From Geotalea uraniireducens Rf4 (lineage in GTDB: Bacteria > Desulfobacterota > Desulfuromonadia > Geobacterales > Geobacteraceae): DNA of 32,000 bases. Both the position numbers and the translations under genes were made by a program. The stretch is taken from assembly GCF_000016745.1 (NCBI RefSeq), contig NC_009483.1:1470001-1502000 (forward strand), in the 5' to 3' direction. Positions 28,774 to 30,538 of the stretch are shown here, one piece after another (position 1 is the stretch's first letter; the number at the start of each line of letters is the position of its first letter). A model generated the notes under the pieces. The model ran no database searches. It had not been told where the DNA came from and saw only the letters and a list, made by a program, of their open reading frames with translations.

Positions 28774-29056
28774 TTTTGCCACAGAGCCACAGAGACACGG
28801 AGGAAAGGCGCAATCTGAGGCCGTTGAACCGCAAATAACGCCTAAAACGCCAGGGACGCGAAGAAAGGCAAAACAAAATTCAAAACCTGATGGGACGCAG
28901 AAAAATCGGAAAAGGCCGATAAAACTTAAAACCAGAACCCCAAAATTACTTTTTAAGGTTTTAAAATCCGCTTTTTCTGATTTTTCCGCCTTTTCTGCGT
29001 TCTATTGGTTTAAGGTGTTCTCCGTGCCTCTGTGTCTCTGTGTCTCTGTGGCAGAA
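28774..29056. repeat. Word-built palindromic element C (CAC[A/G]GAG words, 8-nt phasing)
   Basis: Left arm: CCACAGAG 28779, CCACAGAG 28787, ACACGGAG 28795. Right arm: CTCCGTGC 29020, CTCTGTGT 29028 and 29036, CTCTGTGG 29044. The inner stem is ACGCAGAAAA (28895-28904) / TTTTCTGCGT (28991-29000). Confidence 0.9.
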
Positions 29057-29069
29057 GTGAGGTTTAGAA

Positions 29070-30329
29070 ATGTCTACTGAAATCACCATGCCGAAGCTTT
29101 CCGACACCATGACCGAAGGGCGGCTCATCGCCTGGAAGAAGTCGGTTGGCGATTGGGTGGAGCGGGGCGACATCATTGCCGAGGTGGAAACCGACAAGGC
29201 GAACATGGAGCTTGAGGCGTTCAGCGCCGGTGTGTTGCTGGAGATCCGGGTGAAGTCGGGCGAAATGGTGCCCGTAGGTACTGTGATCGGCATTGTCGGC
29301 GATGCGGGCGAAAAGGTGGCCGAGGGGGTGGGCGCGCAACCGGCGCAGGCAGCGGCGGAAACCAGGCAACCACCCACTGCGGAGCCCTCTCCTGCTGAGG
29401 CGGCAGTCGGCGTTGTTCCAGAGCGGATCATGGAACCGCCGGAAGAGACGGCGGCAGCGGCGTCCATCGCTGAGGGGGGGGAGAAGGCTTCTCCCCTGGT
29501 GCGCCGTCTGGCACGGGAGAAAGGGATCGACCTGGCGCAGGTGACAGCCAGCGGGCCGGAAGGGAGAATCCTCCAGGAGGACCTGGAACGATACCAGGAG
29601 GCACGAGGCGCAAGGAGCGAGGAGCGAGGCGAGGGTGAAAAAGCTCTTGTTTCCGCCGGGGCAATCCAGCCCCTCTCGCGGATGCGGGCGGCGATAGCCC
29701 GGACGGTCAGTGATGCGTGGCAGAGCATTCCTCACTTCACGGTGACCGTGGCCATCGACATGGGGGAGGCTGAGAACGTTTACCGGGAGCTGAAGGGGGC
29801 CGGCGCGATGGTTTCCCTGAACGACGTCATCATCAAGGCTGCGGCCATGGTTTTACAGAAGTTTCCCCTGGCGAACGCCTCCTTTGCCGCAGACGGCATC
29901 GTTCTACACGATGAGGTGAATATCGGCTTTGCCGTCAGCCTGGACGACGGCCTGCTGGTGCCGGTCATCAAGGGATGCGGGGGGCTTTCCCTCATGGAGA
30001 TCGCTGCCCGGAGCCGGGAGCTGATCGAACGGGCGCGCGGCGGGACCATAGCCGAGGCGGACATAAGCGGTGGCACCTTCTCCGTTTCCAACCTGGGGAT
30101 GTTCGGCGTGGAGGAATTTTCGGCGATCATCCACCCGCCGCAGGGGGCGATCCTGGCTGTCGGGGCGGTACAGGACGAGGCTGTGGTCAAGGGTGGGCAG
30201 GTAGTTGCGGCCAGGGTCATGCGGGCCACCCTTTCCGCCGACCACCGCCTCATAGACGGTGCCTATGCGGCGCGGTTCATGGCTGAACTGAAGAGGGTGC
30301 TGGAAAACCCGGTGGCGATGCTGGTTTGA
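29070..30329 (+). CDS. Dihydrolipoamide acyltransferase E2 (single lipoyl domain, PDH type)
   Basis: Lipoyl domain AEVETDKANMELEA, binding domain SPLVRRLAREKGIDLAQVTASGPEGRILQEDL, catalytic LSADHRLIDGAYAA. Confidence 0.92.
   Translation: MSTEITMPKLSDTMTEGRLIAWKKSVGDWVERGDIIAEVETDKANMELEAFSAGVLLEIRVKSGEMVPVGTVIGIVGDAGEKVAEGVGAQPAQAAAETRQPPTAEPSPAEAAVGVVPERIMEPPEETAAAASIAEGGEKASPLVRRLAREKGIDLAQVTASGPEGRILQEDLERYQEARGARSEERGEGEKALVSAGAIQPLSRMRAAIARTVSDAWQSIPHFTVTVAIDMGEAENVYRELKGAGAMVSLNDVIIKAAAMVLQKFPLANASFAADGIVLHDEVNIGFAVSLDDGLLVPVIKGCGGLSLMEIAARSRELIERARGGTIAEADISGGTFSVSNLGMFGVEEFSAIIHPPQGAILAVGAVQDEAVVKGGQVVAARVMRATLSADHRLIDGAYAARFMAELKRVLENPVAMLV
29601..29635 (+). repeat. Weak 7-nt periodic tract in the E2 linker (GAGCGAG x2 with degenerate flanks)
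   Basis: GCACGAG GCGCAAG GAGCGAG GAGCGAG GCGAGGG. Only the two central units are perfect. It encodes ARGARSEERGEG just after the subunit-binding domain. Confidence 0.4.
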
Positions 30330-30343
30330 AGATCCAAAGAGAG

Positions 30344-30538
30344 TTTTGCCACGGAGACACAGAGGCACGGAGAACACCTTAAAAACCGATGGGACGCAGA
30401 AAAGGCGGAAAAAACAGAAAAAACGGATTTTAAAACCTTAAAAGACTTTTGGGGTTCCGGTTTAATCCGCCTTTATCCCCCTTTTCCGATTGTTCTGCGT
30501 CCCTAAAAAGGTTTTGCCTTTCTCTGGTCTCCGTGGTG
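30344..30538. repeat. Word-built palindromic element D, a shorter copy of element C in inverted orientation
   Basis: Left arm: CCACGGAG 30349, ACACAGAG 30357, GCACGGAG 30365. Right arm: TCTCTGGT 30521, CTCCGTGG 30529. Perfect inner stem GGGACGCAGAA (30391-30401) / TTCTGCGTCCC (30493-30503). The plus strand of D aligns with the rc of C over about 130 nt (see findings). Confidence 0.9.

Follow-up and report, generated by a model that had tools for sequence, protein, structure and literature searches.

Inverted palindromic repeats C and D around the E2 gene of Geotalea uraniireducens Rf4: probable resident copies of a small repeat family whose outer arms share an octamer word with distant phyla

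Geotalea (formerly Geobacter) uraniireducens Rf4 is already known to carry Chunjie, a miniature transposable element with inverted repeats (MITE), originally described by Chen, Zhou, Li, Xu 2008 (Genetics 179:2291, as cited in PMC3184786, PMC10969869 and PMC6042816), for which the passages on it in these three papers give a length of 178-235 bp, terminal inverted repeats of 21 bp and direct repeats of 9 bp. The corresponding passages of PMC3184786 and PMC10969869 describe it as AT-rich, folding at -98 to -130 kcal/mol, present as 38 full copies plus 57 partial ones, and found within an operon that its insertion did not disrupt; one published example copy lies at NC_009483:2632106-2632324. Also close are the "multicopy nucleotide sequences" abundant in G. 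metallireducens and G. bemidjiensis, both palindromic and built of tandem words, which are intergenic and sometimes intragenic (Aklujkar et al. 2009 PMC2700814; 2010 PMC2996986), and the repetitive extragenic palindromes (REPs), which the part of PMC3733652 devoted to them describes as 20-40 nt long and headed by GTAG or CGTC, which the REP-associated tyrosine transposase (RAYT) recognises. Here we describe two nested palindromic repeats, C and D, that bracket the E2 (dihydrolipoamide acetyltransferase) gene in the pdh operon of Rf4, within a stretch of 32,000 nt ("the window"). They are probably resident copies of a small, non-coding, nested palindromic repeat family of the MITE or REP/BIME (bacterial interspersed mosaic element) kind. 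The class is already known both in the genus Geobacter and in strain Rf4, and C and D are further members of it.

Element C (28774-29056, 283 nt) fills the spacer between pdhB and the E2 gene, and element D (30344-30541, 198 nt), an inverted copy of the same family, fills the spacer between the E2 gene and lipB. Local alignment of the reverse complement of C with D spans 170 columns, of which 145 match, 14 mismatch and 11 contain a gap, which gives 91% identity over the 159 non-gap columns (145/159). The score of 205 lies far above the 19.0±2.5 (maximum 32) of 300 dinucleotide-preserving shuffles, while the direct orientation scores just 59. A repeat search agrees, returning the inverted pairs 28951-29011/30383-30443 (61 nt, 92%) and 29009-29042/30350-30383 (34 nt, 97%). 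The inverted homology claimed in the original prediction, made from the sequence without alignment software, is therefore confirmed, as is its estimate by eye of nine matching positions in ten; the similar stretch is indeed homologous, with a length of ~170 nt and not ~130 nt. The extra internal segment foreseen in C is present too, and is larger than the 60 nt proposed, C being longer by 85 nt in total. D was correctly located, with a hairpin that extends to ~30541 and not only to 30538.

Each copy had also been expected to be a long hairpin, and folding bears this out, with predicted energies of -116.5 kcal/mol for C (z = -8.4) and -81.9 kcal/mol for D (z = -5.3). The opposite strands of C and D are equally stable when folded, which marks them as DNA palindromes rather than strand-specific structures. 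Both elements begin with TTTTGCCAC. The outer inverted arms of C (28774-28808 and 29022-29056) are 35 nt long and 86% complementary; in D the left terminal arm is intact and the right one degenerate (CTCTGGTCTCCGTGGTGAA). Matches to the word CACRGAG-N confirm that the outer arms are composed of tandem 8-nt words: three in the left arm of C (28780-28802, plus strand), four in its right arm (29020-29050, minus strand) and three in the left arm of D (30350-30372, plus strand), which is paired with the decayed arm.

The most D-like part of C is its conserved half (28951-29042, delimited by the inverted pairs), whose minus strand reads GGCACGGAGAACACCTTAAACCAATAGAACGCAGAAAAGGCGGAAAAATCAGAAAAAGCGGATTTTAAAACCTTAAAA; in C and D alike the conserved half is the one with the strand GGGACGCAGAAAAGGCGGAAAAA...CGGATTTTAAAACCTTAAAA, and a single difference separates this half of C from the orthologue in one relative (L124, see below) across ~75 nt. 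Because C and D are inverted, the operon mRNA would carry complementary versions of the conserved half. The inner hairpin module of D, recognised from an inverted pair, the fold and the family alignment, occupies 30391-30503, with arms GGGACGCAGAAAAGGCGGAAAA and TTTTCCGATTGTTCTGCGTCCC and the tip AACCTTAAAAGACTTTTGGGGTT. The inner hairpin as a whole is ~130 nt long (GGGACGCAGAAAAGGCGGAAAAA ... CGGATTTTAAAACCTTAAAAG ...) and was found only in Geotalea-like sequences. The alignments leave one C-specific segment (28809-28880) with no counterpart in D; its short words GAACCGCAAA and GGGACGCGAAGAAAGG are shared with the element in the pdhA-pdhB spacer. C and D are the only places in the window with the arm words, the module of the middle arm or the sequence of the tip, and GC content is 44.5% in C and 45.6% in D vs 57.6% for the window. 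The open reading frame (ORF) that runs through C (28754-29080) is the 108-aa "hypothetical protein" of G. uraniireducens in NCBI and UniRef (P0121). Among 5.8 billion protein clusters the only entry resembling it is the identical 108-aa one, and the ORF is almost certainly a spurious gene call on the repeat.

We compared the three spacers of the operon with those of relatives, namely the loci encoding the closest E2 relatives (L122, L124 and L125) and a further close locus, L138, from a metagenome scan with the inner core; the same scan gave L141, a locus unrelated to pdh. In Rf4 the pdhA-pdhB spacer holds a hairpin element composed of CGCAAAG and GACGCAAAG words (27560-27750, defined by an inverted pair and the fold; -84 and -99 kcal/mol on the two strands), and the next two spacers hold C and D. 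L138, whose pdhA, pdhB and E2 genes are 95%, 97% and 94% identical to those of Rf4 at the nucleotide level, has a C/D-family copy in the pdhA-pdhB spacer, C with a 76-nt insertion in the second spacer and D with two words in the third. L122 (coding DNA 93-96% identical) shares the CGCAAAG-word hairpin, with a different word number (five tandem CGCAAAG-N); its pdhB-E2 spacer is empty, at 15 nt, and its D copy lacks a 45-nt module and has lost the right inner arm. In L124 (pdhB 92% and E2 86% identical) the pdhA-pdhB spacer carries a family copy with a nested 175-bp element, the pdhB-E2 spacer carries C minus its left part, and the E2-lipB spacer is empty, at 2 nt. L125, a more distant relative (E2 78% identical in amino acids), has a toxin-antitoxin pair in the first spacer and different word-built hairpins in the other two.

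Filled, empty and remodelled spacers among such relatives point to gain, loss and remodelling over a short evolutionary scale and support the mobile-element reading. Non-autonomous mobile elements had been one of the two interpretations first proposed, with a conserved, non-mobile spacer named as the finding that would speak against them. Orthologous spacers are instead empty or filled in differing combinations, a third spacer is occupied by the family in two relatives, and the inner module occurs at an unrelated locus, all of which favours mobility.

Two of the relatives hold further inserts. The 175-bp palindromic element of L124 (3317-3491, ends TAACTATTCAGC…GCTGAATAGTTG) lies inside the C/D-family copy and is flanked by a 9-10-bp duplication of host sequence, GCGGATTTT(A); it is a MITE insertion of the classical type, nested in a second repeat, and may be related to Chunjie. 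A match to it in the window at 704-714 was judged to be chance. In L125 the insert between pdhA and pdhB (3435-4108) encodes a PhdYeFM-antitoxin/PIN-toxin pair, and the other spacers hold hairpins of CACGGAT words and of CACAGAG words at a 10-nt period.

C/D-family copies in the pdhA-pdhB spacer were seen in L124 and L138 only, among the compared loci. The L138 copy is 97% identical over 140 columns to the reverse complement of Rf4 C, whereas D is 91% identical to C; being nearer to C than D is, it was apparently copied recently from the spacer next to it. This, the absence of target-site duplications at C and D and the recovery of nearly all inner-module copies in the three pdh spacers would all fit a family essentially private to the pdh locus, multiplied by local duplication and gene conversion within the operon with no transposon-type mobility. 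We nevertheless consider such a purely local origin improbable. The metagenome scan with the inner core returned 18 stretches, among which L138 is a full family copy, L131 a partial resemblance and L141 an inner module, the remaining ones looking like chance AT-rich matches; and the module in L141, a Geobacter-like metagenome contig, lies just past the stop codon of a sigma-54 response-regulator gene, beside genes unrelated to pdh. The outer-arm (CACRGAG) hairpin, moreover, occurs elsewhere on the contigs of relatives (L122 12713-12840, L141 9788-10002) and in hundreds of unrelated genomes. Plasmid and cultured-phage collections, searched by BLAST with C and with a generic arm hairpin, gave nothing useful.

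Compared with MITEs in general, C and D have terminal inverted repeats, are small, non-coding and AT-rich, and occupy orthologous sites that are filled in some relatives and empty in others; neither a target-site duplication nor a parental insertion sequence or transposase whose ends match was found. Several of these observations weigh against a mobile origin. No direct repeat of 5 bp or more occurs at any plausible C or D boundary, and the empty site in L122 is too diverged for defining the junction; without a target-site duplication, the behaviour of the family would be closer to the REP/IS200 type than to a classical DDE MITE. An all-against-all comparison of the ORFs at 120 arm-word loci, in search of a transposase or other shared neighbour, found no common protein, and the ORFs located between distant arms encode a phage portal protein and an AIR-synthase-like protein. 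We count two copies in the window, three in the L138 operon and one inner module in L141, the only copy outside the pdh operon that the metagenome scan recovered. Finally, the resident copies change mostly by insertion and deletion and hardly by substitution, with fewer substitutions than at the flanking third codon positions: between Rf4 and L138 identity is 0.990 for C and 0.939 for D vs 0.893 for E2 third codon positions, between Rf4 and L122 it is 0.984 for D vs 0.86-0.91, and between Rf4 and L124 it is 0.905 for C vs 0.75-0.80. Slow substitution would not be expected from simple neutral decay of a selfish insert; it could reflect constraint, arm-to-arm correction in the palindrome, copy-to-copy conversion or recent replacement.

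We still regard C and D as probable resident copies of a mobile repeat family, and propose the following course for it. The family would settle in short spacers just past the stop codons of Geotalea operons, each copy being a composite of the inner hairpin and of an outer hairpin made of tandem CACRGAG plus one mostly-purine base. A spacer would gain a copy for which the donor can be the adjacent spacer of the same operon, and resident copies would be remodelled through slippage of word number, module-sized deletions and nested insertions, or be lost. As to how the family spreads, trans-mobilisation or hairpin-dependent copying by some enzyme seems the most plausible route. Once transcribed, the repeats would form very stable intercistronic stems in the pdh mRNA, and by analogy with better-known repeats an effect on the pdh operon is likely.

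The inverted geometry of C and D had further suggested that the E2 gene between them might be inverted by recombination, as an invertible or composite-transposon-like cassette. With ~170 bp at 91% identity, inverted and 1.3 kb apart, the pair is long enough in principle for RecA-dependent inversion, and in L138 both pdhB and E2 lie between inverted copies. The assemblies give no sign of it: E2 has one orientation in 6/6 of them (the window, a second assembly of the same strain and four relatives), including L138 with the same inverted pair. An inversion would leave E2 antisense to the operon and would inactivate it, no recombinase is encoded among the adjacent genes scanned, and E2 divergence parallels that of its neighbours, with no sign of separate transfer. 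A short-read contig of the same strain does stop within D, which may be a repeat-induced assembly break and is not evidence of an inverted isomer. We find an invertible E2 cassette hardly credible, and at the assembly level the suggestion has no support.

The outer arms lead far beyond Geotalea. The pattern CACRGAG-N-CACRGAG-N-CACRGAG, for which ~2 chance matches in 596 Gb are expected by our own calculation, gave at least 120 matches in species-representative genomes (L002-L121) and at least 120 in IMG/VR viral contigs (L144-L263); two shuffled-word controls gave 8 and 33 stretches, nearly all single-strand arrays. The genome matches listed include Acidobacteriota, Planctomycetota, Gemmatimonadota, Verrucomicrobiota, Alpha-, Beta-, Gamma-, Zeta- and Deltaproteobacteria, Spirochaetes, Bacteroidota, Firmicutes, Cyanobacteria, Nitrospirota and Actinomycetota, together with one Methanotrichaceae metagenome-assembled genome (MAG); isolates among them include Magnetospirillum sulfuroxidans, Pelomonas caseinilytica, Undibacterium and Lewinella cohaerens. 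Rf4 itself is not among the genome matches listed; a Gemmatimonadales MAG (OY969570.1) is an example of a species rich in copies. Among the matches listed, 251/360 arms (70%) face an inverted partner no more than 700 nt away, perfect in 144 of these, and the loops measured on 72 arm pairs at genome loci form a continuous range of lengths, 6-584 nt. An arm typically holds three (2-5) tandem octamers CAC[A/G]GAG[A/G] and is usually lengthened by a few complementary bases, often TTCAC...GTGAA, which D has on its right side; the cross-phylum minimal forms begin with (T)TCAC, AAC or CTCA. The hairpins are intergenic, typically 2-30 nt past a stop codon, and are found in all gene arrangements.

Conservation in the partner arm is ~95% at the six fixed positions; A and G stand at ~70:30 in position 4 and at ~50:45 in position 8, and the position-8 pairs match in just 55%. 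Since the fixed positions are conserved while the free purines at 4 and 8 are not kept complementary, the word itself would appear to be recognised, rather than its pairing selected. Since one strand of the arms contains no T and the other no A, a stop codon is impossible in all six frames. Period-8 tandem arrays at 240 loci are dominated by the CACRGAG family; 292 period-7 arrays have no dominant word. The related word CGCAAAG, found three times in tandem in 81 stretches of viral contigs, behaves similarly to CACRGAG and occurs alongside it, and in L160 CACRGAG x3, CGCAAAG x3 and CCTCCAG x4 arrays stand side by side. A literal literature search for CACRGAG and related word strings found none printed in searchable papers. 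An intrastrand-triplex repeat (PMC4666352) was considered as a match for the word and set aside, its motif being a different, G/C-rich one.

Among these loci, at least one hairpin lies within a gene. In an Acidobacteriaceae MAG (L102, CAWHVM010000002.1) a CACAGAG hairpin with a 68-nt loop, at ~6574-6700, is in frame inside a 1184-aa DnaE2-like DNA polymerase III alpha ORF, where it adds ~40 residues within the HHH_6 domain (…CTLE-NFSPQRHRDTEKTRKETHVSPVFISSMNNKVQNSSVSLCLCGENDSVIA-MRLGL…).

It is conceivable, if doubtful, that an undescribed hairpin module, spanning much of the bacterial domain, includes the outer arms of C and D. Should the word hold across phyla, it would imply either a mobilising activity of very broad host range or convergence on a universal molecular target. 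A candidate for the former is an enzyme that spreads horizontally, recognises the word and sets it in motion. A candidate for the latter comes from RNA polymerase, for which the consensus elemental pause is g-11 G-10 t-3 g-2 Y-1 G+1 (PMC11077087). The A-free arm, CTCTGTG-N or CTTTGCG-N every 8 nt, presents G(-10), T(-3), G(-2), Y(-1) and G(+1) of this consensus at every word, and in either direction of transcription through the palindrome it is the second arm, reached as the hairpin is forming. The arrays could then be modules for bidirectional pausing or attenuation by this universal machine.

The second interpretation originally offered was punctuation of the operon at the level of RNA, through processing or stability hairpins. 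The genes pdhA, pdhB, E2 and lipB lie on one strand, and a consensus scan of 26300-30700 found no excess of promoter- or terminator-like sites over shuffled sequence; with no recognisable internal promoter or terminator, C and D are probably transcribed in the mRNA, if the pdh operon is one transcription unit. Stems of the REP/BIME and Correia type can block 3'-5' exonucleases, attract RNase III or attenuate read-through, and within ~15 nt of a stop codon they can disturb translation termination. C sits exactly between cistrons, beginning 7 nt past the pdhB stop codon and ending 13 nt short of the E2 ATG, with the Shine-Dalgarno sequence unpaired in the predicted fold; D begins 15 nt past the E2 stop codon. 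Stem stability on the sense strand is very high, the substitution rates are lower than at synonymous sites, and the cross-phylum relatives of the arm word share the position just past stop codons. All this would suit hairpins selected to set how stable the pdhAB, E2 and lipB segments are relative to one another, or how they are processed or translated, with the repeat nature secondary.

We nonetheless consider such selected punctuation unlikely. C and D are opposed within one operon, so that no fixed orientation relative to the transcript is seen and one mRNA holds complementary, not identical, sequences; L122 does without C and L124 without D; and module-sized indels unbalance the hairpin, as in the L122 D copy that has lost an inner arm. 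Rfam at gathering thresholds gave 0 matches in the window, and in E-value mode only generic microRNA-precursor hairpins far below threshold. RNAalifold on six copies returned 32 pairs kept almost wholly through sequence identity, with 1/32 compensatory and a covariation term of +0.28, and in the cross-phylum arms, oriented by the upstream gene, G·U mismatches (34) are about as frequent as A·C mismatches (30; p = 0.71), so that no RNA-specific tolerance is seen. The elements would thus fold and are probably co-transcribed, as proposed, while the functional part of that proposal finds no positive support; regulation by C and D is possible as a by-product.

The genes around C and D, assigned by Pfam, are all on the plus strand: lpdA (22857-24275), aconitase (24420-26369), pdhA or E1-alpha (26550-27527), pdhB or E1-beta (probable start 27781, end 28767), the E2 gene (29070-30329; Biotin_lipoyl, E3_binding and 2-oxoacid_dh) and lipB (probable start 30561, end 31203). 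The E2 protein is 100% identical to the dihydrolipoamide acetyltransferase of G. uraniireducens (P0001), and the start of lipB is most likely the ATG at 30561, from comparison with orthologues of 206-212 aa. From gene order and strand, C and D, which lie entirely within intergenic spacers, occupy spacers in one co-directional cluster.

Other repeat classes are present in the window. The aconitase-pdhA spacer (26366-26490) contains GTAG-headed, REP-like, GC-rich palindromes (GTAGGGGCGCC…, TGTAGGGGCGACGCC…GGGTGCGCCCCTAC), a repeat class distinct from C and D that is 98% conserved in L122, with an extra 34 nt there. At 4820-5004, between minus-strand ORFs 3987-4772 and 5010-5783, the heptamer ACCACCG is repeated in 26 tandem copies, with ACCGCTG variants at the start and a preceding GC-rich palindrome ending in …GCGCCCCTAC; similar GCTGACG/GCTGATC heptamers lie inside a Planctomycetota hairpin element (L031). 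Arrays of 4-5 copies of the heptamer GGGATCG are found inside long ORFs, at 8454-8482 near the 3' end of a 645-aa minus-strand ORF (8178-10115) and at 21334-21370, ~140 codons into a 413-aa plus-strand ORF (20917-22158). A short array of ATTCGTG-N3 x3 (ATTCGTGCACATTCGTGAAAATTCGTGG) at 20819-20845, for which no inverted partner was noted, lies between a 929-aa ORF ending at 20718 and the 413-aa ORF, and resembles the CACGGAT-type words of L125.

The practical meaning for the locus is one of annotation: in a central-metabolism operon, what had been taken for two "intergenic spacers" and for one hypothetical protein are repeat elements, which turn over between strains and probably alter the processing of pdh mRNA. 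Near-identical operons with empty, one, two and three occupied spacers form a natural series in which the effects of the hairpins on expression can be tested. The cross-phylum octamer hairpin would matter more than the finding at this locus, if it holds: the same 8-nt word as hairpin arms in >10 phyla and in viral contigs is not predicted by the lineage-specific biology of REPs and MITEs.

Among the described systems, Chunjie, compared here by description and not by sequence, resembles C and D in several respects given in the passages cited above. It comes from the same strain, is of similar size (178-235 bp vs 198 and 283 bp for D and C), is AT-rich and non-coding with terminal inverted repeats of ~21 bp, and has a stable fold (-98 to -130 vs -82 and -116 kcal/mol for D and C). 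Like them it lies inside an operon without breaking it, and some of its copies overlap annotated ORFs, as C does the 108-aa hypothetical protein. In the same description Chunjie is flanked by 9-bp direct repeats, and C and D have none, which argues against their being intact Chunjie copies; they may be Chunjie copies, a sister family or independent of Chunjie. The nested element of L124, with its 9-10-bp duplication, fits the Chunjie description given there at least as well as C and D do.

The multicopy sequences of Geobacter are similar in that palindromic and short tandem-repeat families fill intergenic regions, often several per spacer, and some lie inside genes without disruption (PMC2700814, PMC2996986); their heptanucleotide arrays, such as the intragenic and intergenic GGGACCG x4 elements of G. 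metallireducens (PMC2700814), resemble the GGGATCG arrays of the window. They differ in that no printed sequence matching the CACRGAG words was found in these two papers, which report no test of function or mobility (PMC2700814, PMC2996986).

The Correia elements of Neisseria and the Rickettsia palindromic elements bear no sequence relationship to C and D, and each is confined to one genus. Correia elements are MITEs that, being co-transcribed, make long mRNA hairpins, and Rickettsia palindromic elements insert in frame into genes, as the CACAGAG hairpin likewise does in the DnaE2-like gene of L102. With REP/BIME sequences and the REPINs of Proteobacteria, C and D share the position as intergenic, often intra-operonic palindromes after stop codons, the absence of target-site duplication and a mosaic, clustered architecture. 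REP/BIME sequences have known effects on mRNA stability and translation termination. In form and in distribution they differ from C and D: a REP is a palindrome of 20-40 nt with a GTAG or CGTC head, at least as characterised in the source quoted at the outset, where C and D are 200-280 nt long with a TTTTGCCAC head, and REP sequences are lineage-specific, whereas the arm word of C and D is common to many phyla.

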